DNA of 53,303 nt, from IMG/VR virus record IMGVR_UViG_3300014656_000004, positions 1 to 53,303 of that record. One strand, written 5' to 3'. Position numbers and translations under genes: made by a program. Below the pieces are notes generated by a model. The model had not been told where the DNA came from. It made no database searches and saw only the letters and a program-made list of their open reading frames with translations. Origin of the DNA: a virus (Duplodnaviria > Caudoviricetes). The stretch's first letter is position 1, and each line of letters opens with the position of its first letter. Shown in pieces: positions 3,448 through 48,049 of the stretch.

Positions 3448-5466
3448 TTATTGCGGAGGCATTATTCCCTGTGGGGGTTGTAATTCAAGTTCTGCTGCCT
3501 CTTCCATCGGAGGCATTCCTTCCGGCATTATTCCAAGCCCAACATTATGTTGCTCATAGTGTTCAACAAATTTATCCCTTACCACTGGAGTAGCGGCGTA
3601 AAATTCTGGCCTTGCCATAAAAGCATCGAGGACACTTTTATGGATTAAGTGCATATCTCGCTCACTTACTGTAACTTTCCCGGGGGTTTCTCCGTCTCCA
3701 AATAAGGCAAGATTTTCAAGTTTTGCTCTCCGGTAATTTTGATAAGCCACTTCGTTGCCAACCGGGGAAGTTAATCCCATCTCCCGCACCTTGAAACTGT
3801 ATTCATCAAGGGTGATTATTCCATCCTTGAGGGCTTCTTTTAATTCCATTTTCTGTTGTTCTTTTGAAATAGGAATTTCAGACGCAACATTTATATTTAC
3901 TTCGTCGGGGGACGGAATCGCATTTCGACCCAAAGTGATTTCACCAGTTTCCATATCGAAAACTATCCCAGCAAGAGAATCGTCGAGATTACTAATATTA
4001 ACGACTTTTTCAGCAGGCCATAAATCTCTACAAATCCCCAACATAGCCCGATAAACTCCTGAAATAGCTTCGGCTACATTCTTAGCGGTTGGTGATAGAG
4101 GGATAGCACTCGTTTCATATAAGAACCCCAAACCGGAAGCCGAATCAACACGCCCAGGTGCTCCGCCTTTCAACATTTCAGTCGGTTGATTCGCAAGTTT
4201 ATCCATCAAACTACCTGCAACCATAGCTGCATCTACCTGTGGCTTTGTCATTTTTGCGGGTTCAATCGTAAACGGTTTTAAGTCTGGAGACGTATAATCT
4301 GGTTCATACGTTATCCTTTTGACCCCATCTTGTCCTCGATGGGCGTCTGGGGGAGTACCAAGGGATGCAGGCCACATCAACAATCCATATAAATCGAAAT
4401 CGGTGACAGCTTGAAACAGGCTACTAAGACTAAACTCCGCTTCGGTATTTAATGGGATTAGGGTATCAACGAAGGAACGACCATAAAATCCCCCCACAAC
4501 AATATCACGTGCGATTTTCACGGGCATGTGGTACTTGCTTTGGGAATGGTCATGGCGATATAACTGAGCCAATTTATCATAAGAACCGGCAAGGATAAGG
4601 TACTCCGCCAAATACCCATCAGATGTTTCAGTCCAAACCTCGACGAGTAAGGTAACATCAACCTGCGTTTTATCTTTTTTAGTATGTCGTCCTTTCCACT
4701 GCGTCTCAACCTGACTTTGGCCGCTTCGGATATAGAAACCCCCCCCCGTATGAGTGAGAGATGCTGTCCCCTGAAATTTGGAGGACACATCTGCGGGTAA
4801 ATCCCCGAAAGGCACTTTCAAATCATCCATTCCTTTATAGACTTTTGAATTTTTACTCGGGGTTATTGAGAGTCCTTTTACATAATCTGTAGGGACGTAC
4901 CTAACCCGTATCAATCCCCGCACATCCGATGGAGTAGATACATCTATGGGGATAGGTATCAGTTCCCAAGGATTAATAACCTCAATCCCAATACTATCAA
5001 TTCCCTCTACCCATAACCCAAACCCAATCGTCCCATAATGGAGCAGAGGTGGGAAAGCATTAAGAACCAATTTAGAAACCTTTTCCTGTGGAAACGCCGA
5101 ATCCAAAACCACCTGGGCCGTACTCGCCTTCCTTAATCCGTCAAGACTGACCCCTCTCCGTGATACGGCGGGAGCCAAATTTATCGCCAACAACCTTCCA
5201 AGTTGAGCCTGATACTTGGCTACAATATCCTCATACCTGAATTTAAGAATCCCCGATTCATCCAAATAAGAAGCATTCAAGGTCCCACTACCATAATTTA
5301 TGTTTGAGAAATTTCTGATCCCTCTCATATAATAGTGGTTTATCCACCAATTAACGGAAATTGGATTCATTTTATTCTTGCCAGTGGAGACAAGATATTG
5401 AATGATTTGCTCGACTTGCGGTCTATTTGCAGACGTATCTTCTGGTAAAGAGAATTTATAACCCAT
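3448..5466 (-). CDS. Portal protein (672 aa)
   Basis: Size, position after terminase, GGFYGRSFVDTLIPL portal-like segment, Pro/Gln-rich tail. Confidence 0.75.
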   Translation of the reverse strand: MGYKFSLPEDTSANRPQVEQIIQYLVSTGKNKMNPISVNWWINHYYMRGIRNFSNINYGSGTLNASYLDESGILKFRYEDIVAKYQAQLGRLLAINLAPAVSRRGVSLDGLRKASTAQVVLDSAFPQEKVSKLVLNAFPPLLHYGTIGFGLWVEGIDSIGIEVINPWELIPIPIDVSTPSDVRGLIRVRYVPTDYVKGLSITPSKNSKVYKGMDDLKVPFGDLPADVSSKFQGTASLTHTGGGFYIRSGQSQVETQWKGRHTKKDKTQVDVTLLVEVWTETSDGYLAEYLILAGSYDKLAQLYRHDHSQSKYHMPVKIARDIVVGGFYGRSFVDTLIPLNTEAEFSLSSLFQAVTDFDLYGLLMWPASLGTPPDAHRGQDGVKRITYEPDYTSPDLKPFTIEPAKMTKPQVDAAMVAGSLMDKLANQPTEMLKGGAPGRVDSASGLGFLYETSAIPLSPTAKNVAEAISGVYRAMLGICRDLWPAEKVVNISNLDDSLAGIVFDMETGEITLGRNAIPSPDEVNINVASEIPISKEQQKMELKEALKDGIITLDEYSFKVREMGLTSPVGNEVAYQNYRRAKLENLALFGDGETPGKVTVSERDMHLIHKSVLDAFMARPEFYAATPVVRDKFVEHYEQHNVGLGIMPEGMPPMEEAAELELQPPQGIMPPQ

Positions 5467-5904: not shown

Positions 5905-7752
5905 CTATCCTACAATGATATTTCGACCCCGCGTTATGCGACGATTGTTTTTATCAATAGCGGGTTTTCTGGCTCTTTTACTCAAGACATCCACCATTTC
6001 CTCCGTTATCTCCGCAGGAGAAACTCCCGACAATAGAGGCATTCCTTTTATCAGGGGAAGATTCCGTTTAATGCGTTCAAGTAAACTTGGCTTCTCTTTT
6101 TCCCTGACAAATTGCCCCCCCCGATTCTTAACGACATATTGACTCATCGAAAGCGTATCTATAACATCATCGTGCGGTAATAAGGCCAAATCAGGAGTGA
6201 AGTCCTCTGTCTGTTGGTACAGCTGGTCGAATGGCCATTTCCCAGCCAAGTGGGCGGGATACTTTATCTTCCCGGGGGAATACCGCCATTCCATCCCTGA
6301 AATTCGTTGAGATTTAGAGACTTTCGACGGGTACGTGATGGGGAAAACCCTCGCTCGCCAAGGCGTACCAACCTTACTTTCCATCTCATCAATATACTCT
6401 TTGACAGCCTCCGCAAAACTCATCTGAATACTTATGGCCTCTATCCCCAGAACTCTCGGACGCCAAGCCAATCCCTTCTCATATATCAATCGCAGAAGAG
6501 TTGCATCCTTCGCTCTCCCCAGCCATAAATCCAAAATCCATAACGTATTCAAAGTATCAAATCCGAGGATGGCAATACACGAATAATCGTTATATTGGGA
6601 CATACCACTGCCATAATCGAATAACAGAATTCGATACATCGGAAGGACGAGTTCCCGATACGGCTTCTCAAAATCCTTATAAATCCTCCGGCCAGGTTCC
6701 ATATAGCGTTCCGACCATTTTATATTCCCCGTATGAGCCAGAGGATTATTCCAATCGAATTCCCCCTCAACACTATATTCATTCTTGCGGGGGTCAATCA
6801 CAAGAATCCGGTCTTGCTCTGATACTGGTTCGTTACAATACTCGGATGCAAATGCAGATACTCCTATTTCCTCCCGACGTGCCTCCAAAATTTCTTGAGA
6901 CCATTTCTCCGGCCACAAAACATATACTTTTTTCGGGTCATCTTTGTCATACACTATTGCCTTTAGAACTTTACGATTCCAAAAATCAAATCTTGAGTCA
7001 TCACTTGTTGTAGCATGGTAAAGGAAAGACCGACGATTGATTAACGTCCCTGCCCAAAAAATACACGATCCAGATTCAAGCATTGGTATGATTTGACGGA
7101 ACAAAATCATCTCAAACTTTTCTACAACGGCCTGAGCAGATGCCTGTGAATCAGAATCGGGGTCATTTTCGGGGTCATCGAGTATAAATAATCTTGGGCG
7201 GCCTCCCCGCTTTTTCCCCATCACACTAAGTCCTTTTATCACCGCCCCATTCCGCAAATGAAGATGATGATGATTCCAAATAGACTTCCCCCGCAGAGGT
7301 TTTTGTTCCCCAAAATCTTGCAGTATTAACTCATTTTCGACAAATTGCTGAATCAGTTTGTCGAACCGTTCCTCCACTAACCTATCGGTTGCTAATCCAA
7401 GAGTCATCTCGTAATGAGATCGAGTCAGGGCAAGCAGCAAGGGAGCCTCAAGACCTATAACAGAAGATTTGGCCGAACCCCTGGGAGCCGCTTCCGCATT
7501 CCGACCGTATGTCCCCAAATCAGAAATCATCTCATAATGAAAATCAGGGGATTCCTCAAAACCATTTTTGTAAAAGAGTTTCCCGGCCCCTGCAAGATAG
7601 CATCGGCGAAAGAAATCCCAAGCCACTACCAAGTCAAAAGGAGTCGATTGATTATGCAGAACAGCCAACCTCGCTTGTTTCTGACTGTCCAGTGACAACT
7701 CCTCATAATCTTTTGGGAGAGGCCATATTGGATAAGGTCGTTTAATCCACAT
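5905..7752 (-). CDS. terL: Terminase large subunit
   Basis: Walker A PRGSAKS, Walker B ILDDPEND, RNase H-like LLFD...DYSCI...HDDVID. Confidence 0.92.
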   Translation of the reverse strand: MWIKRPYPIWPLPKDYEELSLDSQKQARLAVLHNQSTPFDLVVAWDFFRRCYLAGAGKLFYKNGFEESPDFHYEMISDLGTYGRNAEAAPRGSAKSSVIGLEAPLLLALTRSHYEMTLGLATDRLVEERFDKLIQQFVENELILQDFGEQKPLRGKSIWNHHHLHLRNGAVIKGLSVMGKKRGGRPRLFILDDPENDPDSDSQASAQAVVEKFEMILFRQIIPMLESGSCIFWAGTLINRRSFLYHATTSDDSRFDFWNRKVLKAIVYDKDDPKKVYVLWPEKWSQEILEARREEIGVSAFASEYCNEPVSEQDRILVIDPRKNEYSVEGEFDWNNPLAHTGNIKWSERYMEPGRRIYKDFEKPYRELVLPMYRILLFDYGSGMSQYNDYSCIAILGFDTLNTLWILDLWLGRAKDATLLRLIYEKGLAWRPRVLGIEAISIQMSFAEAVKEYIDEMESKVGTPWRARVFPITYPSKVSKSQRISGMEWRYSPGKIKYPAHLAGKWPFDQLYQQTEDFTPDLALLPHDDVIDTLSMSQYVVKNRGGQFVREKEKPSLLERIKRNLPLIKGMPLLSGVSPAEITEEMVDVLSKRARKPAIDKNNRRITRGRNIIVG

Positions 7753-7768
7753 TACCTTTCATTCCCAG

Positions 7769-8011
7769 TCACTTTTTTTTATGGCCTCCATTTAACTGGG
7801 CCAAAAAATGACTTATATCAGCTAAACAAGTTGAATTAAAAACAGTTTCCGGTTCCGGAAAAAAACAATACTGTCTCCATCTACTAAACCATTCCACTGT
7901 TCCTAACCAATAATTTGTATCTTTACTCCAACAAAAAAAAGTGCTCGTTTTTCTTTGAGGACGTCGTGAAGATACGTCCTCAAAATAAAGATATTTATAT
8001 TTAAGCTTCAT
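7769..8011 (-). CDS. Hypothetical phage protein
   Basis: LGTVEWFSRWRQYCFFP...CLADI small phage-protein pattern; coupled to the upstream ORF. Confidence 0.7.
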   Translation of the reverse strand: MKLKYKYLYFEDVSSRRPQRKTSTFFCWSKDTNYWLGTVEWFSRWRQYCFFPEPETVFNSTCLADISHFLAQLNGGHKKK

Positions 8012-8738
8012 TTTTGAATTCTTTAATGACAGGAAGCAGATGAATTACATCGAAGAAAGCTATCGTTATTGCAATTCCCGCAGACCACGCCGAATTTCCT
8101 TTATTTGATCCCATCACGATTCGCAGACTTGGCCAAATCCCTTCGATATACCCAGGTTGATTCAGAAGAGCAAAGACCATTTCAGGAATTTTAGCCCTAT
8201 CCGCAAAATCCCAAGTCGTTGTCGAAGGAGTCGTCATCGGCTCAGCACATAAAATCTTTATATGAAATGCAACAGTGGCTGGCACAAATCCATCCTCTCG
8301 GATATATTTCTTCAGAGCCGTAAGCTCAACATCCTCCGCAGGTTGATTTATCACGCTGTCTTCTGCTTCCCTAAACATTTTCTTCTGCATTTCTTTATCC
8401 AATTCCCCCTGCATAAAAGTTATTTCTTCTTTTTCACTCTGCGGAGGTAATTCCGGGGAAGAGGTCTCGGCTACAAGTTGGGGGTCTGGTTTTGATACAG
8501 GGATTGGTATTTCCTTCTCCAATTCCTGCTCTTGAAGTCTCTCCTCCGTCCGGCGGTTCAGTTCCTCCAGAGCCAGCATTTCCGACGGGGAAGGCTCGTC
8601 CGGTATCTCGGATGGGTTCTGTGGAACTGGGGTCAGAACTGCATTCTCCGGTAGGTCGCTCAGTTTCCCTTTTTTTGGATTGACTCTGTCCCCTATCGCT
8701 TCCTCTATTGGGTTCGGTTCGGGTTTCTTTTTTGTCAT
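8001..8738 (-). CDS. Hypothetical protein with Pro/Glu-rich N-terminus
   Basis: AAGGA RBS before ATG 8738; globular-looking C-terminus. Confidence 0.7.
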   Translation of the reverse strand: MTKKKPEPNPIEEAIGDRVNPKKGKLSDLPENAVLTPVPQNPSEIPDEPSPSEMLALEELNRRTEERLQEQELEKEIPIPVSKPDPQLVAETSSPELPPQSEKEEITFMQGELDKEMQKKMFREAEDSVINQPAEDVELTALKKYIREDGFVPATVAFHIKILCAEPMTTPSTTTWDFADRAKIPEMVFALLNQPGYIEGIWPSLRIVMGSNKGNSAWSAGIAITIAFFDVIHLLPVIKEFKNEA

Positions 8739-9105
8739 TTTGTGATTCCTTAATTTCGGTGGATTCTATTTGTTTCATTGGGTTAAGTACCTTTGCAATA
8801 CGTTTTGCAGAAAATGTAGTTGTCCCTCCGTGAGCATCGGAAATTGTTTGAGACACTCTTGCAGTGTACCCAGATGTCTCCGCAGCCTCCCGAAGCAATT
8901 CACGAAGATGTTTCAAAGCCTTGAATTTTATCGAAAGGTTTGAATTTTGCTTAGCCAAGGCAAGTGTTTCTCGGATTTCAAGACTATAATTCCATCCAAG
9001 CTCTCGAAACATATTCGTGATGATGCTTGGATCATTAAAACTCTGAATAGCAGCTAACACATCTTCCGGACTCGGCTGCTCAGATTTTTCAATTTCGTTA
9101 GGCAT
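8434..9105 (-). CDS. Hypothetical protein, candidate terminase small subunit
   Basis: Helical N-terminal 125 aa upstream of terL; C-terminus overlaps the next ORF; TerS call is positional only. Confidence 0.5.
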   Translation of the reverse strand: MPNEIEKSEQPSPEDVLAAIQSFNDPSIITNMFRELGWNYSLEIRETLALAKQNSNLSIKFKALKHLRELLREAAETSGYTARVSQTISDAHGGTTTFSAKRIAKVLNPMKQIESTEIKESQNDKKETRTEPNRGSDRGQSQSKKRETERPTGECSSDPSSTEPIRDTGRAFPVGNAGSGGTEPPDGGETSRAGIGEGNTNPCIKTRPPTCSRDLFPGITSAE

Positions 9106-11841: not shown

Positions 11842-12516
11842 CTAAAACCCCGAGTTGGTGTTATTTATAAATTGTACTATATTCATATTAGCATTATCTG
11901 CATTTTTCTTTATCCTTTTCATACAAGAGACAATATCTATTATCATATCTTCTTTGGAAAATATTATAGATTGGGAAGAAATTGGTGTTCCAATTTTCGT
12001 ATTTGAATTATTAAGTTTTTGGAGTTTACGAGGATCAATTTGCATAATTGCTCTTATAAAATCATATTTTGAATCTAACTGGTTTGCACATTGCATCAGC
12101 ATATTAATACTCATCCCCGCACGAGCCATTCTACAGGTAACTAAAGAGGGGATATAATTTTTGCAGGCTTCGGGCTTATTATTATGGATAAGACATTTTT
12201 TATTATAGGAGAGAAAAGGACATCCTTGATGTGTACGGAATACATAGGGATATTTATTGCGATTGATCTTTACACTTTGAGGAACATCTCTCATAGGAAT
12301 CATAATTTCTTTTAGACGAGGTTCACGTTCAATATCTTCTGTAGTGAGTTCTACAAATTGATCTCTATGGCAACAGGCTCCACAATTTTCACATTCTAAA
12401 GAAACAGTGCACATTTTTAAGTTAAATTCTGCTATGGCTCTCAAATTTAACGATTTCTGTAGCGTTTTGTGTCTTCTTTTAATTTTTCGCCGTTTCTTCA
12501 TTTTAGTTTCTTTCAT
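11842..12516 (-). CDS. YkgJ-like CxxCxxCC (Fe-S/Zn cluster) protein
   Basis: CENCGACC...CPFL...CLIH..KPEACKNY. Confidence 0.85.
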   Translation of the reverse strand: MKETKMKKRRKIKRRHKTLQKSLNLRAIAEFNLKMCTVSLECENCGACCHRDQFVELTTEDIEREPRLKEIMIPMRDVPQSVKINRNKYPYVFRTHQGCPFLSYNKKCLIHNNKPEACKNYIPSLVTCRMARAGMSINMLMQCANQLDSKYDFIRAIMQIDPRKLQKLNNSNTKIGTPISSQSIIFSKEDMIIDIVSCMKRIKKNADNANMNIVQFINNTNSGF

Positions 12517-12545
12517 TTCTCTTTTTCAGGTTTCATATTTGGTAT

Positions 12546-12574
12546 ATTTTAACAAACCCTGCGGAGGAAGTCAA
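12546..12574 (-). promoter_or_regulatory. Promoter TTGACT-N17-TAAAAT with the motif, in the opposite orientation, in the spacer
   Basis: TTGACT tCCTCCGCAGGgtttgt TAAAAT. Confidence 0.8.
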
Positions 12575-12869
12575 ATGTTTTTTTTATTAATCCCCAAAAT
12601 CTTCGTTTCATTTTTTGCTCCTATATTTGTTACAGTTAATATAATCGCTACAATCAGCATAACCCCCTTCAAGACCGCCACAGGTACTTCCTGTTACACA
12701 TTGTTGGCGGTCTTGGTATCTTCGTATATTAGCATAATAATGCAGAATGACAGCACATTTTGAAACGGGGAAATTTTCAGAATGTGCGTTTTTAGCGAAA
12801 TATACGAAGGCACCAAGGCCGCCAATATTGTGTGACAGGAATCTCTTGAGTCAGATAAAAAGCTCATTT

Positions 12870-13931
12870 TCATGCCCTTAAAGCCCACTCCCATTTACCA
12901 TCCCCGCCACCTATGCCCCCTATTTTAGTAGATTGGATTCCAAGTTTGCTCTTGATTCGTTCCAATGTTCTTTTTGAGAAACCCATCTGGAGACCTACAT
13001 TGAATATTTCGTTGGCTGGTTTAGGGCCATCGGAAAGATATTCTTGAAGCCATTCGGTGGCAGCATCTTTTTTCGGGGAGCGTTTCTCAAATTTTATTGG
13101 GGCCAGAAGCTCCTCGGCGGAGGTGTGGATAGTTTCAGGGGAGAAGGCACAGTAGGGGGCATCGGCTGTTCCGCCGTCGAAGGTTGGAATAGAGGTGCTC
13201 ATTATCGTGAAAGACAGACCAGTGGGATTTTTGGATAAATTTCCTTTTGAGGGAACAAAAAGACGCCCAATTTCATTTTCAGGGTCTTGGTGGACTAACC
13301 AGACGGCTCGCACGGCGGCAGTAAAAGCTATTGACCCTAAGACACGGTAGTTTGCAGTTTGAGTCATTTGGTTTTTGTTAAGATGGGTGATGCCGATAAT
13401 GGCTATGTCGGCATTCCTGGCGAGGTCGGCAAGGGGAGTGAGGTATTCTCGGACTTCTGCATTTTTGTTTTCATTTTTGCCTTCCATATAGGCGGAGATA
13501 GGATCGATGATTACTAATTTTAAGTCCGGCATATCTTTTACTGTTTGAATCAAAACATCTAAATCTCTGGTTAGGTTATAGAGACCATGCCGTTTTCCGA
13601 TTTCATCGGTGTATGAAGAAAGAGAGCAGATTTTTGCCAAATCCGCTTGGGCGGCCATTAATCTTGGCCCCACTGTATCAGATAAATCATCTTCGGCAGT
13701 TAGGATGAGTACTGAGGCTGGGGTTCGGGGTGTGGAAGTATCTATCCAGGGGCGACCTGTTGAGACTTGGGCAGCTATATATAGAGATAAGAGAGATTTT
13801 CCCTTGCCTGGGTCACCAACGATAAGTGATATTTTACCAAGAGGGATACGGTTTGGCCAGAGCCAGCTTAACTTTTCCATTTTAAGTTCCTTAATGGGAT
13901 GGGGTTCAGGTTTTTTTATTAGATCTTTCAC
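12870..13931 (-). CDS. AAA_25 / RepA-like SF4 helicase, no primase domain
   Basis: WLWPNRIPLGK, Walker A GDPGKGKS, VIIDPI, HLNK, GSIAF. Confidence 0.88.
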   Translation of the reverse strand: MKDLIKKPEPHPIKELKMEKLSWLWPNRIPLGKISLIVGDPGKGKSLLSLYIAAQVSTGRPWIDTSTPRTPASVLILTAEDDLSDTVGPRLMAAQADLAKICSLSSYTDEIGKRHGLYNLTRDLDVLIQTVKDMPDLKLVIIDPISAYMEGKNENKNAEVREYLTPLADLARNADIAIIGITHLNKNQMTQTANYRVLGSIAFTAAVRAVWLVHQDPENEIGRLFVPSKGNLSKNPTGLSFTIMSTSIPTFDGGTADAPYCAFSPETIHTSAEELLAPIKFEKRSPKKDAATEWLQEYLSDGPKPANEIFNVGLQMGFSKRTLERIKSKLGIQSTKIGGIGGGDGKWEWALRA

Positions 13932-13944
13932 AAGAGGTTCCTAA

Positions 13945-13992
13945 AAATAAGTGGGGCCGGAAGGCGGACGCGGAGAAGGCAAACCGGCCCCT
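13945..13992 (-). terminator. GC-rich hairpin plus U-rich tract in the helicase leader
   Basis: GGGGCCGG...CCGGCCCC followed by ACTTATTTTT. Confidence 0.6.
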
Positions 13993-14086
13993 ATGACGGG
14001 TTGTGGCCCGTATTTGAAATGCGTATGATTGCTTCATCCACCTTTTTCCTGGCTCATAAGTCGAATATCCGACTCCGCTATTGTGT

Positions 14087-14114
14087 ATTATACCAGAAAT
14101 GGAATTGATGTCAA
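14087..14114 (-). promoter_or_regulatory. Promoter TTGACA-N16-TATAAT for the helicase
   Basis: Consensus hexamers with extended -10 TG. Confidence 0.72.
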
Positions 14115-14122
14115 GAATTTTT

Positions 14123-14434
14123 TTAGGGGTTTTGAAAAACATCTACTATAGAAATACCTTCTGATTGTATTCCCGTACATATTATCAAAGCTCCTATAGG
14201 AATATTTATAAATTCTGTGGGAGAATCATCTTCTGGTTTATCTGGAAATCTCTCACTAAGGCCATTTAGAATCAGGTAGTAAGTACACATCCATCCTTGG
14301 TCATTATAACGAGCAACCAAACCTTTGAAGTCCTGTCGCCACAGACGAGCTTTTTTATGAGGATACTCCGGCTGTATTTTCAAAATAAAATGCCAAATAT
14401 CAGGATGGGTTTTTTCTGTTATTTCTTCAACCAT
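14123..14434 (-). CDS. Hypothetical protein
   Basis: ORF directly after the promoter at 14441-14469. Confidence 0.6.
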   Translation of the reverse strand: MVEEITEKTHPDIWHFILKIQPEYPHKKARLWRQDFKGLVARYNDQGWMCTYYLILNGLSERFPDKPEDDSPTEFINIPIGALIICTGIQSEGISIVDVFQNP

Positions 14435-14440
14435 AAAAAC

Positions 14441-14469
14441 ATTATAACAAATCGTGAAATCAAAGTCAA
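14441..14469 (-). promoter_or_regulatory. Promoter TTGACT-N17-TATAAT
   Basis: Near-consensus hexamers and spacing. Confidence 0.78.
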
Positions 14470-14579
14470 GAGATTTTGGGGGGTTTTGAAAAAATTTTTT
14501 GGGAAAGCTCCTCCGCAGGATTGGGGGGATTATGCCAACTGTGGGGATTGAGGGGGTTGGTGGTTTATAAGGAAAACTT

Positions 14580-14890
14580 ATACTGCGTAAATTTCCACTC
14601 GGTTCGAGGATTTGCTTGACTGGGAATTTTTTTTGATTCCTTGCAAGCGAGGTCTTTGACCTAATATTTTAGAACTTTCGCAGGGGCCGACAGGGGGGCT
14701 GCAATCGACGATGTTATCGGACACCACAGTTATCGGACTGGGGATTTCATACTGGAAACGTAGGGATTATTGGCACTGTCCGATAATGCGACTACACTAA
14801 CCCTAAACCCTTGTCGGAAATGGACTTAGTTATCGGACATTTAGTTATTCAGACATATCGGACGTGATGGGACACTTGGTTATTCATACA
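14580..14890. repeat. Non-coding repeat cluster A: 22-mer plus TTATCGGAC iteron-like repeats
   Basis: GTTATCGGAC at 14713, 14729, 14829; inverted copy at 14778; variants at 14844, 14856, 14879; ATACTGCGTAAATTTCCACTCG at 14580. Confidence 0.85.
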
Positions 14891-15037
14891 AAAAAAGCCC
14901 TCATACCAGGCATGAAGGCATATATCCTGCGGAGGAGGACAGCACCGGCCTTGGTGAAAGTGAACATTTTGTGATGTTATCTATTTTGTTTTCCGGGGGC
15001 TATAACCACTAACCTTAAATTCTACCTTTTAGAACAC

Positions 15038-15085
15038 CTACTACATATAGTATGCCTTCTTTTTGGCCCATACTACATATAGTAT
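15038..15085. promoter_or_regulatory. Tandem NrdR-box-like palindromes
   Basis: CTACTACATATAGTAT (15038) and ATACTACATATAGTAT (15070), 32 bp apart. Confidence 0.6.
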
Positions 15086-15087
15086 AG

Positions 15088-15324
15088 TCATTTAAGCTCA
15101 TTGGTTTCCACAAACCAGGCTCCACTCTCCTTTTCTGCTTTATACTTATCCTCCTCCAACTGATAAGTCTCTTGGCTGATTTTCCCCACAATAATAGCCG
15201 GAAGAGGCATTACTCTTTGTTCATAATAAGCAGCGGCACTAATCCCATTGCAGCCTCCTGCACTAATCAGCATCCCTACCACTATTGACACAATCAATAG
15301 CTTTTTCATTTTGTTCCCCTTCAA
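15088..15324 (-). CDS. Small lipoprotein
   Basis: MKKLLIVSIVVGMLISAGGC signal peptide and lipobox-like Cys. Confidence 0.7.
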   Translation of the reverse strand: MKGNKMKKLLIVSIVVGMLISAGGCNGISAAAYYEQRVMPLPAIIVGKISQETYQLEEDKYKAEKESGAWFVETNELK

Positions 15325-15329
15325 TAAAG

Positions 15330-16028
15330 TTACTTTTTGCTTTTCTGGTATTTTGCTATCCTTGCCACGTGCTCAAGAAACTCCTTTTGAGAATAAGCCA
15401 ATTTCATTCGATTACACATTGCACAACAAGCCACAACATTCCCTTCCACATATCCTCTGGAGTTATCCACACGGTCAATTCCCTGATAAATATATTCACC
15501 ATGTTGCCCCTTATCTTTACAAATATTTGAAGGCTTCGCTCCGCAGTAGAAGCATTTCTGTCCGCATAGTTCTCGAAAATATTTTCGGGATAGTTGAAAG
15601 TTATAATTCCGCTCTTTTGCTCCATTTTTGCAGTTTCTAAGTATTCTATTAAAACCTGATTCCCCAAATGGGAGTCTACGCAAACAACCACAGGATTTCA
15701 CGTTTCCTTTTTTTAGACTTCCTCTGGAGACTATTTTAATTTTCTTGCAATCACACTGACATTTCCAAAAAGACCTCCCCTGCTTGCCATAACCTGCTTG
15801 TTCTAATACTACTAACATTCCAAAACGTTGTCCAACTAACGAAGATTGTTGAAGACATCCACAAGACTTAGTGTGTTCACTTCTTAGATGATAACCTGCT
15901 ACTATTTTAATCGTTCCACAAATACATTGACATTTCCAGATAGATCTGTGGTATTTGTCCATGTGGTCAAACCCCAATACTACAAGTCGGCCAAATCTCT
16001 GTCCTGTCAAATCTAATCGTTTGCCCAT
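15330..16028 (-). CDS. HNH-type endonuclease-like protein with two DLTGQRFGRL...WKCQC...SCGC repeats
   Basis: Repeated Cys motifs plus CFYCG...GIDRVDNSRGY..GNVVACC..CN. Confidence 0.8.
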   Translation of the reverse strand: MGKRLDLTGQRFGRLVVLGFDHMDKYHRSIWKCQCICGTIKIVAGYHLRSEHTKSCGCLQQSSLVGQRFGMLVVLEQAGYGKQGRSFWKCQCDCKKIKIVSRGSLKKGNVKSCGCLRRLPFGESGFNRILRNCKNGAKERNYNFQLSRKYFRELCGQKCFYCGAKPSNICKDKGQHGEYIYQGIDRVDNSRGYVEGNVVACCAMCNRMKLAYSQKEFLEHVARIAKYQKSKK

Positions 16029-16063
16029 CTTCCTCCCTCACAATAAAGTTATCATTTACTTTG

Positions 16064-16306
16064 TTACTGAAGCAATTGGACCTCAAGATCAAGCCGAGCG
16101 GCAATTGCCAGATTTTGCTCGGCAAATGCCTCAAGCTGTGATGCCTTACCAGCACAAACCTCCTCCTGACCTGCGTAAATTGGATGTTGTGCTTGTCGCA
16201 TGTGAGCAGCGGCGTATTCTTTTTGCCCCGCCGCCAAAGATCGCAATCTCGCTGCCTCTTCTCTTTTTTTTGTGACTTCCACATTATTGGCTTGTTCTTG
16301 TGTCAT
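16064..16306 (-). CDS. Hypothetical Ala/Gln-rich helical protein
   Basis: GAGGT RBS before ATG. Confidence 0.7.
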   Translation of the reverse strand: MTQEQANNVEVTKKREEAARLRSLAAGQKEYAAAHMRQAQHPIYAGQEEVCAGKASQLEAFAEQNLAIAARLDLEVQLLQ

Positions 16307-16373
16307 TTTTTACCTCACTTTCCGGCCTATTGACCTATCTCACAATAAAGTTATCATCTATCCTTCTTTTGAG

Positions 16374-16499
16374 TTAACGTGCTGATACCACTTTCTTAAA
16401 CAACCGTAGATAATCCCGATACATCTGATTAGCTTGTGTCTGTGTGATGTATCCCCACAAGACCAGCTGACGTAATCTGTCTTTTTTGTATTGCTTCAT
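16374..16499 (-). CDS. Small hypothetical protein (41 aa, MKQYKKDRLRQ...)
   Basis: Translated by hand; strong GAGGAGG RBS. Confidence 0.6.
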   Translation of the reverse strand: MKQYKKDRLRQLVLWGYITQTQANQMYRDYLRLFKKVVSAR

Positions 16500-16621
16500 A
16501 GTTTTTCCTCCTCTTTCATATTAGGCAGATATATGCCAATACCACAAGTAAAAGCATATATCATGCCGGTATGTTGTTAAATAGTGTATTTCATTTTCAA
16601 ATCCTCCAAAACTCTATATAC

Positions 16622-16650
16622 AGTATAACCTATTTTCTCCCACAATGCAA
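16622..16650 (-). promoter_or_regulatory. Promoter-like TTGCAT-N17-TATACT
   Basis: Paralogous to the cassette at 18383-18411. Confidence 0.55.
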
Positions 16651-16774
16651 ACAAAAAAGCCCACAAATAAAGATTTTTTCCTCTAACCTGCGGAGGTAAA
16701 AGAGGAAGGCCCCGGTTATCAGTGTGTGGAGGGCACTAACCGGGACCTCGTTGAAGTGAGCATTTCCTACAAAG

Positions 16775-17089
16775 TTATTCCAGTTTACCGTTTTCGATAC
16801 AATCCCGTTTCGATCCTTTCGATATTGTCCACAGTATGGGATAATTATTTTCCCGTTCATAATGAAATTGTGCATTTACATCCCGATACTTCGCTGGCAG
16901 CCACTTTGCTTCTGCCATCACTGTTAAGGCAGTTTGCTGATAATGCTCGCCATAACCGTATTGAAAAGGTCCAACAACAATAGCCCCATCTCGATTTCTG
17001 TAACATCGGACAGAATGATAAGTATTTCCATTTACTTTATCAAACCATTTTACCGCAATAACCATAAATTTAATTTGTCTCGTTTTCAT
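16775..17089 (-). CDS. Hypothetical phage protein
   Basis: WFDKVNGNTYHS...FQYGYGEHY motif; RBS present. Confidence 0.75.
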   Translation of the reverse strand: MKTRQIKFMVIAVKWFDKVNGNTYHSVRCYRNRDGAIVVGPFQYGYGEHYQQTALTVMAEAKWLPAKYRDVNAQFHYERENNYPILWTISKGSKRDCIENGKLE

Positions 17090-17234
17090 AGGTTTTTCTC
17101 CTCTTAAATTCCGCCGCCAAATTTCGTTTCACTTGTGCCACAATCTTTTTGGCGTTCTTTAATCCTGCCATACACAACAAATCCCTCGTGATGTTTTCCG
17201 CCATTTGGTCTAAATTCACCCTTGTCAATTTCAT
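17070..17234 (-). CDS. Small hypothetical protein (start MKLTRVN)
   Basis: GGAGG RBS before ATG 17234; promoter at 17280-17308. Confidence 0.65.
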   Translation of the reverse strand: MKLTRVNLDQMAENITRDLLCMAGLKNAKKIVAQVKRNLAAEFKRRKTYENETN

Positions 17235-17279
17235 TTTCAATCCTCCAAAAAAAGTTAAAATCCACAATCCACTACGCAA

Positions 17280-17308
17280 AGTATAACATATTCCCCCGGC
17301 CAAGTCAA
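17280..17308 (-). promoter_or_regulatory. Promoter TTGACT-N17-TATACT
   Basis: Near-consensus hexamers and spacing. Confidence 0.72.
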
Positions 17309-17452
17309 CCATAAAATGCTAATTATTAGAAAATATCCACAATTTTTTTACCCCTCCGCAGAATACCCCTCTTTCCTGCGGAGGTCCCCCAGAAAAATAT
17401 CTGTCTCAAATCCCCCACACAAAACAGAATCCAAAACCCGCACAAGAGGAAC

Positions 17453-17488
17453 CAAAAAAAGCCCGAGAGATATACATCGCCCGGGCTT
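17453..17488 (-). terminator. Intrinsic terminator
   Basis: AAGCCCG...CGGGC stem followed by a run of seven T on the minus strand. Confidence 0.7.
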
Positions 17489-17672
17489 CGTGGGAGGAGG
17501 AAAATGACATTTTAACGGTTTTTCTCGGCGTACCGAACGCCAATTACCAATAGCCACCCAAAACCCAATGCTACAATCCCCAGCAGTGGCAATCCAAATC
17601 CTAACCCATATAATATCAAATCTTTCATTTTTCAATCCTCACTTTCAAAATATTAAAGTTTGTTTTTCTTCA

Positions 17673-17861
17673 TCAATCGTTATTAACCGTTCCATATCTG
17701 GCCCTATCACAAGTCATATTTTTACCTACAGCATAACCTAACATTCCGTTATATTGAGCACCAACCATACAACGAATACGTTTTTCATACCAATCAGGTT
17801 CTTTGTGGTCGGCACAATCAGAACATTTAATATCGCCTTTTTTAGCTTTACGATAATTCAT
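17673..17861 (-). CDS. Small Cys-rich protein
   Basis: MNYRKA...CSDC...C...C. Confidence 0.7.
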   Translation of the reverse strand: MNYRKAKKGDIKCSDCADHKEPDWYEKRIRCMVGAQYNGMLGYAVGKNMTCDRARYGTVNND

Positions 17862-17876
17862 TTTTCATATTTCCTT

Positions 17877-18203
17877 TCAATCCTCACTTTCTATTTTGTG
17901 TAATTCGCATATAGGATAACCGTCTTCCTCCGTTAAATAAATGTGCTCCTCGTCACCGTCAATAGTGATTTCAGCCTCCAATGCCCCCGGGTTCAATTCC
18001 CCAGCCTCCACCAATGCTGCCAATATCTCTTTATTTGACGGCACAAAATCGGTAAACTGTCCGGGTTTCCCTTTGTTATACGTTTTCGGCATTGTCGGAA
18101 CCACAAAATCCCTATTGGCACAATACCTATCATTTAGGTCGAATCCCTCTTCTTCGTTTCCCCAAACATCATAAAGCCATAATTCGTAACTGTTGTTTTT
18201 CAT
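17877..18203 (-). CDS. Acidic hypothetical protein
   Basis: YDVWGNEEEGFDLND motif; GAGG RBS. Confidence 0.75.
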   Translation of the reverse strand: MKNNSYELWLYDVWGNEEEGFDLNDRYCANRDFVVPTMPKTYNKGKPGQFTDFVPSNKEILAALVEAGELNPGALEAEITIDGDEEHIYLTEEDGYPICELHKIESED

Positions 18204-18226
18204 TTTCAAACCTCTGCAAGAACGGT

Positions 18227-18355
18227 TTAGCGATAATATGATTCGTCCTCGGTTGGTGGGGGATTGACCCCAGGCGGTAATTCTTTGCTATGATCCCCCG
18301 ACCAGTCGTGCATTACTATTATCATATACATTACAAAAAATATCAAACCTGCCAT
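18227..18355 (-). CDS. Small membrane-anchored peptide (42 aa, MAGLIFFVMYMII...)
   Basis: Translated by hand; GGAGG RBS; promoter at 18383-18411. Confidence 0.55.
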   Translation of the reverse strand: MAGLIFFVMYMIIVMHDWSGDHSKELPPGVNPPPTEDESYYR

Positions 18356-18382
18356 TTTCAAATCCTCCAATAAACTATGTAA

Positions 18383-18411
18383 AGTATAAACTATTCCCAA
18401 ACAAATTGCAA
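18383..18411 (-). promoter_or_regulatory. Promoter TTGCAA-N17-TATACT
   Basis: Correct spacing; heads the small-gene region. Confidence 0.6.
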
Positions 18412-18530
18412 GTAAAAAATCCCTAAAATAAAAATTATTTTTCTCCTCCAGCGGAGGATTTTTCTCTTGTTTTACATTCAGGAAAATGCTATACTGATAC
18501 CGGCACGGATTCCCGCCAGCCCGAAATGGT

Positions 18531-18646
18531 TTATCGGACTTGGCTGGTTATAGGACGCTCCCTGCTTTCCGAGCGATTATCGGACGCAGGATATTATAGG
18601 ACGGAATCCCCCCGCAGCAATCGAATACTGCGTAAATTTTCACTCG
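18531..18646. repeat. Non-coding repeat cluster B: four TTAT(C/A)GGAC copies plus the 22-mer
   Basis: Copies at 18531, 18548, 18577, 18594; ATACTGCGTAAATTTTCACTCG at 18625. Confidence 0.85.
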
Positions 18647-18811
18647 CTATCCCACAACCCGTCCAGACCGCCGAATCAAACCCTGCCGCTTCAACTCTTC
18701 ATACCGCTTGTTGAAAGTTGCTATGGTTATTACTCCTTTTATAAGCAACCACCGTAAATCCGCTTCCTCTCGGGTAATCGTTTGTGGTCGAGGTCTGCTA
18801 CCTTTTCCCAT
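18647..18811 (-). CDS. Small basic protein (54 aa, MGKGSRPRP...)
   Basis: Translated by hand; AAGGAGG RBS. Confidence 0.7.
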   Translation of the reverse strand: MGKGSRPRPQTITREEADLRWLLIKGVITIATFNKRYEELKRQGLIRRSGRVVG

Positions 18812-18825
18812 AAAAATTACCTCCT

Positions 18826-19002
18826 TTATTCTGTAACCTTAAATGTAAATAACGGACGAACGTCAAATTCCCTTTTTTCAAGACACAATTCCGCCCAACA
18901 ACATTCATTGGAATATTCACAAACCATTTTCGTCCTAAAACAGGGGGTGTTCCCCTCCGAAGTCTGCAAGTCTCTAATCTTTTTTATTATTGTCTTATTC
19001 AA
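18826..19002 (-). CDS. Small Cys-rich protein (..LQTSEGNTPCF..C..CCW..C)
   Basis: Translated by hand; TTG start overlaps the upstream stop. Confidence 0.55.
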   Translation of the reverse strand: MNKTIIKKIRDLQTSEGNTPCFRTKMVCEYSNECCWAELCLEKREFDVRPLFTFKVTE

Positions 19003-19354
19003 GATATTTTCTTGCTTTTAATATAAAATCATAGTCTTCAAGAAAACCGAGTTTCTTATTACATTTATGGCAAAGTAATCCGCGAACTGCTCCAGTTTCA
19101 TGGTCAACCGATAGGCGTATTGCCCCAAATCTATTTCTACCTGTTTCCGGTAAATTACAGATAGCACAACAACCGTTTTGTTTGGTAAACATTTTGTTGT
19201 AATCTTCAACTGTTATACCATAATTGTACTTTAATTGGTATTCTCTCTCTTCCTTTTTATGTGTTCTTTTCCATTCGCGGTTGTGTTTCTGGAATCTCTC
19301 CTTATGCTCCAGGTAATACTTTCTATCATAGACTTTTTTGTCTTCTTTGTTCAT
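18995..19354 (-). CDS. Endonuclease VII-like protein
   Basis: YGIT..Y..M...Q...CAIC...VDH..G.VRGLLC..CN..LG. Confidence 0.85.
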   Translation of the reverse strand: MNKEDKKVYDRKYYLEHKERFQKHNREWKRTHKKEEREYQLKYNYGITVEDYNKMFTKQNGCCAICNLPETGRNRFGAIRLSVDHETGAVRGLLCHKCNKKLGFLEDYDFILKARKYLE

Positions 19355-20265
19355 TACAGGATAGGATAACTCCTTATTTCAATTTTGGGGGAAATATATT
19401 CCCGGCCCCCGATAACCTGTTCATAAAAAGGCCAAATCACAATTTTAGCGGTCATAAAAGCCCTTGCTGGATAACAGTTATTGGATTCATAAGTCCCTCT
19501 CCCAACGGAATGACTATCAAGCCAGCACCCTGGATTAAGAGCAAAACGATGTCGCCACAGCAAATCCGCAGGTAAATCCCCTCGTGTGGGAACATAAGCC
19601 ACCGGTTTCGGAGCTGAGTATGCAAATGTATGGGTATGACCACTAATACATATATCTGCTATTTCCCATTCTGCTTGCATTGCATAGAGCTTTAGGTGTT
19701 CCGCCGATACACTTCTCCCAGCCCCATAACCATGCCTGGCCACAACGATAACGGACGAGCTACTCTTTCCGCTATTCCTAATGAATCTAAACCGAATCAA
19801 AACCTCATCAGATAGATTAGGCACACCAAGGTTGTCACATAACATTTTTTGAATATCTTGGTTATACCATTTCCGTATGGCTTTTTCGTGATTCCCCTCA
19901 ATAGCTCCCAAAAGGATATGCTTTACAGGGTCAAGAATTTTAGTAATTCTTTTAACCTCGTGAGATGCAACATCAGAGAGTTTGTCCCTCACCTCTTCTT
20001 TATCCCCCTCAAGAAGCCAATCTGCCACGTCAGTGAAATCAAACCTCTTAGTATCCTTGGGTTTAACGGCATTAGCTGCATCTCCACCGAGCAAAACCCG
20101 AATATGACGATTGGGCATCCTATCCCGCTTAACTACCTCCCCAATCCATTTCCTTATCGCCAATTCATTACAATTAGATTTTCCAATGTGCATATCATAC
20201 AAAGGAAAAATCTCCACTCTGTCTCCACGTCCCTGACATTCTATTTCAACATTCAATAGTTTCAC
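19354..20265 (-). CDS. Calcineurin-like metallophosphoesterase
   Basis: DMHIG, GD, GNHE, HG, GHTH motifs. Confidence 0.88.
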   Translation of the reverse strand: MKLLNVEIECQGRGDRVEIFPLYDMHIGKSNCNELAIRKWIGEVVKRDRMPNRHIRVLLGGDAANAVKPKDTKRFDFTDVADWLLEGDKEEVRDKLSDVASHEVKRITKILDPVKHILLGAIEGNHEKAIRKWYNQDIQKMLCDNLGVPNLSDEVLIRFRFIRNSGKSSSSVIVVARHGYGAGRSVSAEHLKLYAMQAEWEIADICISGHTHTFAYSAPKPVAYVPTRGDLPADLLWRHRFALNPGCWLDSHSVGRGTYESNNCYPARAFMTAKIVIWPFYEQVIGGREYISPKIEIRSYPIL

Positions 20266-26994: not shown

Positions 26995-27315
26995 TTAAGT
27001 TCGTGTCCAGGGAAATCGAGGTCTGAAAATCACGTAGGGGTCACAGCTAAAGATATGGGCAATATCATTCAATTCTTCCAATGTCATCCCCTCCTCTATT
27101 ATATTCTGTTTGGCATATTTTTCCCACATAGGATTTTTTTCTATTCCCCTCATCCCTAATAATCGACCCACGTCATTCCAAGTCATACCGAAATCTTCCA
27201 TCAACATTTCAATGGAATTTTTCAACTCAATCCGCATCCGCTCATAGCTTGCTTCCTTGAGCCTCCGCAGAACATCTTCACTGGTTTCACGATTAGGATT
27301 TATCACTTGTCCCAA
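26995..27315 (-). CDS. XRE-like HTH DNA-binding protein
   Basis: GMTWNDVGRLLGM...MTLEELNDIAHIFSC. Confidence 0.65.
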   Translation of the reverse strand: MGQVINPNRETSEDVLRRLKEASYERMRIELKNSIEMLMEDFGMTWNDVGRLLGMRGIEKNPMWEKYAKQNIIEEGMTLEELNDIAHIFSCDPYVIFRPRFPWTRT

Positions 27316-28509: not shown

Positions 28510-28747
28510 TTCCCAATTCCTTATCAAGCAAATCACAATCCGATGGACTTAAATGCTCCGCCACTTTCCAAAACCACAACAGAGCTTCTTTCCATCCTAA
28601 TCCAAAATCAATTTCGTCAGGAGGACGATTGGGAAATCTTTTCTTACATTCTTCATACACTTTTTTGACTTCTTTCATATTTTGTATTCCTTCTTTTGTA
28701 ATGGCATAGTCAGGAAATTCAGGAATAGTTTTCATTTCGTTACTCAT
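28487..28747 (-). CDS. Hypothetical protein, NUMOD4-like start
   Basis: KTIPEFPDYAITKEG. Confidence 0.55.
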   Translation of the reverse strand: MSNEMKTIPEFPDYAITKEGIQNMKEVKKVYEECKKRFPNRPPDEIDFGLGWKEALLWFWKVAEHLSPSDCDLLDKELGNDTSKDR

Positions 28748-47310: not shown

Positions 47311-47495
47311 TTCCGTTTCCGTCTAATTGCCTTGGCGATTCCCCGAGCAACTCTTTTTTTCTTCTTTGGAATATTTGCCCCAGAACGTCTTGCCACATCA
47401 AGGGCAATAGCAACGGCTTGAGCGTGTGGTTTCCCGTGAGCCTCTTCCGTTTCTATATTATGCCCTATATTCTTTTTACCTTTTAATAATGGCAC
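47307..47495 (-). CDS. Small basic protein (MPLLKGK...QAVAIAL family)
   Basis: Motif typical of small phage proteins. Confidence 0.75.
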   Translation of the reverse strand: MPLLKGKKNIGHNIETEEAHGKPHAQAVAIALDVARRSGANIPKKKKRVARGIAKAIRRKRK

Positions 47496-48049
47496 TATTC
47501 ATACTCCTGATTTAGAGCTATTTTCAATATTTGGCCGATAAAATCTGTTCTGTTGAGGTTCATTTTCATTTTATTGCATAATCCACAACAAGAAACTACA
47601 TTACTTTCTAAGTAACCAATAGTATTGTCTAATCTATCTATTCCATTATAGATAAAATGGCTCCCCTTAACTTTTACTATTTGTTGTGGGGTTGTTCCAC
47701 AATAAAAGCAAGATTGTTGAGTTAATTTTCTAAATTTTTCTTTGCTTAATTCAAATAATAAACCTCGTTCAAATGCTCGATTCTTATATTTTGAATATAA
47801 AGCGTTGAACCCAGCTACTCCTTTAGGTAGTTGTAACCTTTTTCTCTGTACATCTTTTAACAAACAACCGCAACTTTTAGACGTTCCATTTTTAAGACTG
47901 CCACCTCTTATCACTTTTTCAGTTCCACAGTTACAACGGCATTTCCACCAAGTTCCTTGGTTACGTCCTTTAGAATCCCAATGATTGTGGTCAAAACCTA
48001 TAATAAACCAACGACCAAAAGTCTTACCTGTTAAATCTTTAGTTTGCAT
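47495..48049 (-). CDS. HNH-type endonuclease-like protein, paralogue of 15330-16028
   Basis: DLTGKTFGRW...WWKCRCNCG...SCGC...CFYCG...GIDRLDN..GY..NVVSCC. Confidence 0.8.
   Translation of the reverse strand: MQTKDLTGKTFGRWFIIGFDHNHWDSKGRNQGTWWKCRCNCGTEKVIRGGSLKNGTSKSCGCLLKDVQRKRLQLPKGVAGFNALYSKYKNRAFERGLLFELSKEKFRKLTQQSCFYCGTTPQQIVKVKGSHFIYNGIDRLDNTIGYLESNVVSCCGLCNKMKMNLNRTDFIGQILKIALNQEYE

Follow-up and report, generated by a model that had tools for sequence, protein, structure and literature searches.

In phage lambda the same operator stands in two clusters, OL and OR, about 2.4 kb apart, with outward promoters and a repressor loop joining the two. Paired clusters of short repeats also occur at replication origins, for which P4 (ori/crr) and the iteron pairs of P1 and F offer a comparison, and origins activated by transcription are known from T7 and from T4 (oriF and oriG). 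Twort-like phages carry short border repeats that are inverted rather than direct. Mycobacteriophage stoperators are spread genome-wide, about one per several genes and in one orientation relative to transcription. According to the available text of one study, the stoperators of Cluster A mycobacteriophages are asymmetric repressor sites at which a bound, monomeric phage repressor stops elongating RNA polymerase (PMC9283540); the available text of another places the earliest transcription units of phage K within its long terminal repeats (PMC11598898). Here we describe a locus in the 53,303-bp virus record IMGVR_UViG_3300014656_000004, which was analysed in its entirety (the window). Two non-coding regions, A (~14470–14940) and B (~18380–18646), lie on either side of a block of small genes, hold arrays of the same short motif and, to judge from alignments with related genomes, are conserved cis-elements.

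A sequence-only reading of this DNA had taken the two regions for the terminase cut sites of a 4-kb terminal repeat, with iteron origins or the recombination sites of an excisable module as alternatives. The pairing itself has held up, in that conservation and geometry across relatives support A and B as functional, paired boundary elements. As to their role, we tentatively favour arrays of binding sites that, as border or control elements, insulate the early cassette block and set its timing, a reading that we regard as possible but short of probable.

The paired border regions and their conservation

The 22-mer ATACTGCGTAAATTTYCACTCG matched the window only twice when up to three mismatches were allowed, at 14580–14601 and 18625–18646. 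Both copies are on the plus strand, in direct orientation, with 21 of 22 bases identical, and none of 100 shuffles of the window gave a match; the direct repeat that the earlier reading had pointed out is thus confirmed. So are the clusters of TTAT(C/A)GGAC that it placed just inside each 22-mer, with pairs 16–17 nt apart: TTATMGGAC had eight exact matches against 0.66 expected (0/100 shuffles reached eight), all within 14714–14838 or 18531–18602, and start-to-start spacings were 16 nt (14714/14730) or 17 nt (18531/18548 and 18577/18594). Cluster A had been said to reach 14890, but exact copies extend only to 14838 and those beyond are degenerate; one exact copy (14778–14786) is inverted. The degenerate units of array A are ATATCGGAC at 14855, plus TTATTCAGAC / TTATTCATAC. 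With one mismatch allowed, the 9-mer gave 25 matches against 10.9 expected, 16 of them scattered singles outside both clusters, and the two arrays together amount to about nine sites in the window.

A further shared element, GCAATCGA, was found only at 14701 and 18617, beside both arrays, as had been claimed. At least two matches also appeared in 42 of 100 shuffles, so that its position is notable but its count is within chance. On the plus strand, region A reads 22-mer, about 100 nt, GCAATCGA and array, and region B reads array, GCAATCGA and 22-mer. The arrays are on the inner side of both 22-mers, inside the 4,045-bp interval.

The features of the locus are as follows.

12870–13931, minus strand: AAA_25 (RepA/DnaB-like) helicase gene (Pfam AAA_25, 2.8e-35; PHROG primase/helicase families)
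14441–14469, minus strand: sigma-70-type promoter TTGACT-N17-TATAAT of a 103-residue open reading frame (ORF) and the helicase operon (11/12 positions, with TG; kept in relatives)
14508–14937, no strand: core of region A, bracketed by the perfect 14-nt inverted pair CTCCTCCGCAGGAT / ATCCTGCGGAGGAG (repeat search)
14580–14601, plus strand: 22-mer copy A, with the conserved core ACTGCGTRAATTT (match search, alignment)
14650–14662, no strand: palindrome AGGTCTTTGACCT, largely invariant in the region A alignment
14683–14698, plus strand: G-rich block GGGGCCGACAGGGGGG, mostly invariant in the region A alignment; a similar G-rich element occurs in G002
14714–14890, plus strand: array A, TTATCGGAC sites at 14714, 14730, 14778 (inverted), 14830 and 14855 (one mismatch)
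14897–14919, minus strand: hairpin resembling an intrinsic terminator, with a T run after it, where the small-gene block ends
15088–18355, minus strand: about 12 small genes (ORF list, repeat search, PHROG matches, promoter scan)
18383–18411, minus strand: promoter TTGCAA-N17-TATACT of the first block gene; –10 invariant in 5/5 relatives
18467–18495, plus strand: outward promoter TTGTTT-N17-TATACT, reading into array B; equivalent kept in 5/5 genomes
18531–18602, plus strand: array B, two pairs TTATCGGAC-N8-TTATAGGAC (match search, alignment)
18625–18646, plus strand: 22-mer copy B, abutting the stop codon of a 54-residue ORF
18647–18811, minus strand: conserved basic 54-residue ORF (MGKGSRPRP...), adjoining region B in most relatives

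Region A also contains a short T8 run and a T/G-rich tract, and the helicase is the first large gene after it. Apart from gaps between block genes, A (14435–15087) and B (18401–18646) are the only sizeable non-coding regions of the window; the remaining gaps of a greedy gene call are covered by overlapping ORFs.

A scan of viral contigs for the paired motif gave 84 loci. Several of them (L006, L009, L019, L029, L056, L060, L064, L077, L081), and L001 besides, share genes with the window; this lineage is referred to as G1. Region A could be aligned across the window, L064, L081 and L009. Its invariant or near-invariant blocks are the minus-strand promoter of the helicase operon, the T/G-rich tract, ACTGCGTRAATTT, the T run, the palindrome AGGTCTTTGACC, GGGGCCGAyGGGGG, TTATCGGAC-N7-TTATCGGAC and two TTAGTTATTCAGAC-type units. 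DNA identity was 55–66% in region A and 45–51% in the adjacent helicase gene of the same genome pairs, whose helicase proteins are 33–41% identical. This non-coding DNA, more alike between genomes than the helicase gene, is under purifying selection.

Region B aligned across the window, L064, L081, L019 and L077, with the same order in 5/5: the –10 of the first block promoter, a divergent plus-strand promoter, two motif pairs and GATACTGCGTRAATTTCCACTC. The one reading into array B is the only conserved plus-strand promoter that we found in this minus-strand genome. In relatives it has the form TTGACT or TTGCCT, N17, TATAAT or TACAAT; the window copy is weaker, scores below the threshold of the promoter scan and was identified by reading the sequence together with the alignment.

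The exact 22-mer had no match in viral contigs. Its 13-mer core is present twice in direct orientation in L064 (8120, 12225) and L081 (8773, 12000), and seven metagenome contigs also hold two copies, 1.5–5.1 kb apart, so that the two-copy layout occurs in at least nine related contigs besides the window (10 genomes in all). In contigs long enough to tell, the gene order is helicase, A, block, B, and then the 54-residue ORF or the exonuclease. Motif sites are found on the outer side of the region A 13-mer as well in L064, L081 and L260, which suggests that the recurring unit is sites followed by 13-mer. Co-variation at the purine (R) position of the 13-mer gave no signal (concordant in 6/10 genomes, and in 3/7 new ones).

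The motif in other phages and in bacteria

Clusters of at least four sites were present in 70 of the 206 sequences compared, and viral loci were assigned to groups G1, G2 and G3 by shared neighbouring ORFs. The motif logo is (A/G)TTATCGGAC(G/C/T), about 11 nt, with nothing conserved outside. Sites occur in both orientations and at variable spacing (14–17, 25–27 and 33–37 nt), as would fit double-stranded DNA sites of a small or monomeric binder. Two clusters stand 2.4–5.8 kb apart in at least 12 of 85 viral loci. Of 230 papers containing the 9-mer, the 20 listed concern, by title and abstract, primers or unrelated topics. We also considered the 9-mer as a DnaA box and set the idea aside: TTATC is common to both, and four of nine positions differ.

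G002, a complete genome of group G2, measures 63,855 bp, its ends overlapping by 99 bp; nearly all of its ORFs of at least 200 residues share one strand, and the motif is clustered at 54692–55056 and 57508–57651 and nowhere else. A plus-strand TTGACG-N17-TACACT promoter, beside a divergent block promoter, reads into its B-like array; its A-like array comes with a minus-strand TTGACC-N17-TAGAAT promoter, a T/G-rich tract, G-rich elements and a terminator hairpin. The predicted promoter and terminator geometry matches that of the window. Beyond the sites and this general layout, nothing in region A could be aligned between the two. By phmmer they share only four protein families (two 54-residue proteins, a membrane protein and a protease); their terminase families differ, and so do their replication proteins, which are unrelated (AAA_25 in the window versus a RepB-primase/DUF5906 protein, i.e., RepB-primase/superfamily 3 (SF3) helicase, in G002). 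Beside the B-like array of G002, at 57690–57830 (L208), there are about seven copies of a second direct repeat, CCAACCCACCCT.

In G3 loci, some of them in contigs of 100–170 kb, 34–113 sites are dispersed rather than tandem over 1.4–5 kb of small ORFs, in all three reading frames and with 79–91% on the ORF strand; arrays of up to 79 sites were seen among the viral loci. A pattern of this kind is more easily reconciled with a regulatory or coating signal than with an origin or a packaging site. Large arrays of TTATCGGAC-like sites are found in L070 (4701–9660), L024 (305–2800), L065, L079, L073, L023 and L014, and in them the ATG start codon just 3′ of a GGAGG ribosome-binding site (RBS) often comes from the variant TTATGGGAC.

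Among bacteria, one Phycisphaeraceae metagenome-assembled genome (MAG; G007) holds 19 copies of TTATCGGAC-N6-TTATMGGAC, with TTATAGGAC in 18 of them, against none for the reversed control pattern. In the four copies of this multi-copy element that we inspected (L091, L117, L140, L162), a conserved linker accompanies two parS-like palindromes (TGTTTCACGTGAAACA or TGTTTCGCGCGAAACA). An Acidobacteriota MAG holds six copies of paired TTATCGGAC with an 8–9-nt spacer (N9 in five) and none of the control pattern. Most other matches in bacterial genomes are either isolated and no more than chance would give, or repeats within coding sequence. The contexts of the paired motif, with neighbouring genes named from their ORF translations, are mixed (the repeat element beside parS-like palindromes; upstream of a TetR-like gene; between enolase-like and response-regulator-like ORFs), and no common regulon was found around them. 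A scan of bacterial genome contigs, with at least 120 matches where we estimate that about 200 are expected by chance, supports no taxon enrichment.

Possible roles of the arrays

In the reading that we tentatively favour, A and B would be the conserved borders of an early accessory-gene block, each an array of short asymmetric sites, (A/G)TTATCGGAC(G/T), coupled to ACTGCGTRAATTT as second element. One sequence-specific DNA-binding protein, probably monomeric, would bind both arrays; the host could supply it, or it could be a small phage protein that has gone unrecognised. Array B would act from just 3′ of the outward promoter and upstream of the first block promoter, and array A from between the block terminator (14919–14897) and the strong helicase-operon promoter. 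Once bound, the arrays would most likely stop read-through into and out of the block, and by bridging A and B they could set the timing of the block, or switch it off, with respect to the replication operons on either side. Protein binding, roadblock and looping are proposed here from the elements, their conservation, geometry and recurrence. What points to border control is the conserved border position, the asymmetric sites in mixed orientation, the G3 pattern and the precedent of stoperators.

Several observations weigh against this reading. The arrays lie 120–420 nt from the promoters that they supposedly control, and the orientation of the sites relative to genes is antisense in G1 and G2 and sense in G3. 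Region A is a composite of arrays, G-rich block, palindrome, T run and 13-mer, and in this it resembles a plain operator less than it does an origin of plasmid type or a packaging site. Transcription, binding and looping at the arrays are themselves only proposed. Moreover, no binder of TTATCGGAC was found among the phage proteins compared. The helicase was rejected as common binder, being absent from 5/5 G2/G3 records with the motif and without similarity to the RepB-primase/SF3 protein of G002. Two small families shared with G002 are each present in three of five further records, neither of them convincingly in G3, and the product of the 54-residue ORF at 18647–18811 was modelled as a basic arm plus helical hairpin (pLDDT, the predicted local distance difference test, 75.7) with no PDB match at E ≤ 0.001.

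Iterated profile searches from 25 window proteins found only three tiny proteins that cross group borders, no phage protein common to all three groups emerged from the comparisons made, and a protein atlas search with the two small shared proteins gave no usable match. An 80-residue protein encoded beside the terminase (7769–8011) has relatives in L044 and L014, away from their arrays. The ORF at 26995–27315 showed a weak Cro/C1 helix-turn-helix (E 0.0063, below the cut-off) with no counterpart in the other groups. For the product of 17070–17234, a ribbon-helix-helix fold was rejected, the model being one long helix (pLDDT 92.8). A RepC search was uninformative, its control having matched in no control genome.

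The terminal-repeat question could be approached through sequencing depth, terminase relationships and assembly joints. Nineteen runs were found (groundwater metagenomes and one biofilm metagenome), and we compared four runs from four studies; runs with small word shares (X12–X19) and parts of the sequence without contig cover were kept out of the evidence. Depth is one figure per Logan contig, and the figures are inconsistent between runs. No place at which many molecules start or stop emerged from the four runs, although contigs are unable to reveal one. In X1, a single contig (9123–21033) that spans the block had a depth of 12.4 against 10.2 and 9.9 beside it, where about 13.4 would be expected from a collapsed 4-kb repeat and about 10 without one; the excess could stem from a second strain at about 5. 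In X5, where two strains were resolved, window-like block contigs were at 5.4–5.9 and flanks at 7.4–7.8, and the variant strain at 10–12 inside and outside the block. Block and flanks were at 4.0–5.0 and 4.0–5.7 in X8, and at 5.7 and 4.05–4.2 in X6. High contigs covered region A in X8 (9.8) and region B in X6 (7.7), as k-mers shared between strains would also produce. The nearest cultured TerL relatives, at only 22–24% identity, include the Paenibacillus phages Tripp, Halcyone, Unity, Heath, Scottie, Ash, Ley and C7Cdelta, which the available text of PMC6070908 describes as direct-terminal-repeat packagers.

The proposal that the 22-mers mark terminase cuts and that 14580–18646 is a 4-kb direct repeat carrying early genes, or else that short-repeat ends lie inside A or B, appears doubtful to us. 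It would account for A and B as the only large non-coding regions of a one-strand genome, for the early-type small genes with their own promoters, for a direct 13–22-nt element kept at both borders in 10 genomes and for the X1 excess, and the terminase relatives make fixed ends somewhere in A or B plausible. The strain-resolved depths of X5 and those of X8 speak against it, and the block sits amid replication and recombination genes. Border repeats that are direct rather than inverted misfit the nick-and-displace scheme of repeat duplication. Nor does the array motif resemble a terminase recognition signal, being shared with unrelated phages of a different terminase family, where it forms arrays of up to 79 sites, and with bacterial MAGs, where it occurs as pairs. 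A bipartite replication origin, with array A (G-rich block, T run and 13-mer) as the origin beside the helicase and array B as a second cis site (a start primed by transcription, a locus for handcuffing or an enhancer), is rather unlikely. In its favour, region A is long, composite and more conserved than the helicase gene. The order of arrays, G-rich block and T-rich tract resembles that of IncQ oriV, array B is fed by a conserved promoter, and the adjacent helicase is of the AAA_25/RepA family with a C-terminus that matches DNA-binding PHROGs; a C-terminal winged-helix DNA-binding domain is described for the P4 alpha protein in the available text of PMC2777425. On the other side, phages whose replication proteins are not homologous, and which lack this helicase, carry the identical motif, the primase and polymerase of G002 are about 40 kb from its clusters, 34–113 sites over small ORFs are not origin-like, and the window has no RepB-primase match. 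The iteron alternative of the sequence-only reading, taken as repeated protein-binding sites, is close to what the comparative data indicate; no initiator co-occurs with the motif. Cumulative GC skew, a check that this reading had suggested, has no genome-wide turn at either region.

We consider it improbable that a host nucleoid, defence or global-regulator protein recognises the 9-mer and that the arrays serve as decoys, sponges or nucleation platforms on first-expressed DNA. A host-protein site would explain why unrelated phages share the motif, and the lack of a phage protein common to the three groups, the multi-copy pairs in MAGs (19 in Phycisphaeraceae, six in Acidobacteriota, reversed control 0) and the arrays of up to 79 sites are all in its favour. 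However, the bacterial contexts are heterogeneous, many of the bacterial matches are single chance-level or coding repeats, and about nine sites in the window are few for a sponge. A broader version is unlikely too, though less remote, namely that TTATCGGAC is the site of one conserved factor, either cellular or an unrecognised phage protein carried universally, and that at least three unrelated phage lineages use the site in border arrays, or in arrays of up to 79 copies, over early DNA as decoy, sponge or nucleation platform to protect or silence the first-expressed region. The excisable module has fared worst. As attL/attR-like sites, the 22-mer would be the core and the arrays arm-type sites; the core is indeed direct, 21/22 identical and on the plus strand in both copies, with the arrays on the inner side of each, and a fused circle would read array, core, array. 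Yet there is no recombinase among the eight block ORFs of at least 54 residues that were scanned (the only functional match was an HNH endonuclease), and none of the 12 joints in four runs links 14.6 and 18.6 kb, so that the predicted junction of a 4,045-bp circle did not appear. Among 51 metagenome loci, 22 have lineage genes, and 0/22 show an empty site or a circle junction; the arrays adjoin the element in 21 of these 22, the exception (L243) sharing only a methylase match. The layout is also stable across genomes with 33–41% helicase identity, and we regard this explanation as very hard to credit.

Should border control, or an origin run by a shared factor, prove correct, TTATCGGAC arrays with ACTGCGTRAATTT would offer a sequence handle by which early regions, control points and perhaps hosts could be located in uncultivated phages, whose cis-regulatory logic is barely known. 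Three phage groups and the Phycisphaeraceae and Acidobacteriota MAGs have the motif in common, and this suggests that a connection through a host or a factor could be tested for. Were the conserved-factor explanation true, the arrays would represent a class of phage cis-element not described before, one that phages have in common through host range and not through descent; were the terminal-repeat model true, a conserved direct repeat bracketing a long repeat could be used for calling termini in metagenomic phages.

The small-gene block, the wider genome and described systems

The block between A and B encodes, among others, a lipoprotein-like ORF, an HNH endonuclease (15330–16028), a phrog_6246 protein, the 54-residue helical protein (17070–17234) and small membrane proteins. 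The family of 17070–17234 is the most conserved G1 block gene, and lies between both elements or just inside B in 11 metagenome contigs. At 15088–15324, a 78-residue ORF has a lipoprotein-type signal sequence, which suggests a candidate superinfection-exclusion lipoprotein. The earlier reading had credited these small genes with promoters and RBSs of their own. Repeated promoter/RBS elements (families D1–D6) and sigma-70-like promoters are indeed there, but the 21 promoter-like sites in 14000–19400 are not strongly above chance (14.2 ± 4.0 in shuffles).

An 88-nt promoter/RBS element is repeated in the block with 77% identity (16592–16679 and 18353–18440), and strain-variant joints occur at it in runs X5 and X6 (16633/18211, 18388/16644, 18395/16643, 16679/18656). 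Since the joints coincide with repeated promoter/RBS elements, small-gene cassettes appear to be shuffled there in the manner of promoter early stem-loops (PeSLs), which mediate modular shuffling in the hyperplastic regions of T4-type phages according to the available text of PMC2839356 and PMC4122927.

The ends of the record share an exact 123-bp overlap inside an ORF, so that the assembly is circular with a length of about 53,180 bp; its IMG/VR class is 'direct terminal repeats', with completeness given as 100%. The minus strand holds 33 of 37 ORFs of at least 150 residues, and the four on the plus strand overlap longer minus-strand ones. In transcription order, the genes upstream are DNA polymerase (28740–31325), an ERCC4-type nuclease, an exonuclease, an SbcC-like protein, a Sak4-like protein, a deoxynucleoside monophosphate (dNMP) phosphatase, an exonuclease, endonuclease VII (18995–19354) and the 54-residue ORF, followed by region B, the roughly 12 small genes and region A. 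Then come the 103-residue ORF, the AAA_25 helicase (12870–13931), a DNA methylase, the large terminase (5905–7752), a portal-sized ORF (3448–5466) without family match, and structural genes. No tRNAs were found in the window, and no integrase or CI-like gene among the window ORFs scanned. A blastn search of 12001–20000 against cultured phages gave no match, and Rfam over 13500–19500 returned two sub-threshold chance matches and nothing else.

The helicase gene has positive plus-strand GC skew (12950–14150), opposite to all other genes, and in the relative L001 the helicase is on the strand opposite to its neighbours, which together suggest that the gene was inverted or acquired recently. Among the head genes (47495–48112) is another HNH endonuclease, a paralogue of that in the block. 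The minus-strand ORFs 8001–8738 and 8434–9105 overlap by about 300 nt in different frames, and relatives of both were found in 6–7 related loci; the start of one or the other is probably miscalled.

Another repeat, CCTCCGCAG(R), occurs 40 times in the window against 0.20 expected (0/100 shuffles reached 40). It is split 20 per strand and genome-wide (e.g., 660, 2780, 14510, 14927, 17353/17376, 50533), with 30 of 40 copies within ORFs in all frames, and the perfect 14-nt inverted pair around region A is made of it. Enriched in 7/7 G1 relatives checked (L001, 19 kb long, has 19 copies), it is missing from G002 and from four G2/G3 loci and is a lineage-specific genome-wide signal.

Among described systems, the PeSL cassettes of T4-type phages resemble the interior of the block, where repeated promoter/RBS elements sit at strain-variant joints; the likeness does not extend to arrays A and B, and the sequences are unrelated. 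With the long direct terminal repeats of T5, SPO1 and phage K the block shares early-type small genes, promoters of their own and non-coding borders, but here it lies between recombination and helicase genes. Lambda OL/OR likewise has two clusters of one motif and outward promoters; in our case no repressor or lysogeny genes were found, the sites are off the promoters, and accessory genes take the place of an immunity cassette.

Like iteron origins (P4 ori/crr, P1 incC/incA, IncQ oriV), the locus has two short-repeat clusters a few kb apart, with a RepA-family helicase next door and, in region A, a succession of arrays, G-rich and then T-rich segment. It differs in that no initiator co-occurs with the motif, which is found in phages with unrelated replication proteins and, in another group, in arrays of 34–113 sites. 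From the stoperators of L5 and Bxb1 the locus departs in having two border arrays, mixed in orientation within arrays and opposite between phage groups, and in having no repressor, integrase or CI-like gene among the scanned window ORFs. What the two have in common are short asymmetric sites in many copies, located also outside promoters in transcribed intergenic DNA: here a 9–11-mer with nine sites, and an array B that stands 3′ of a conserved promoter.

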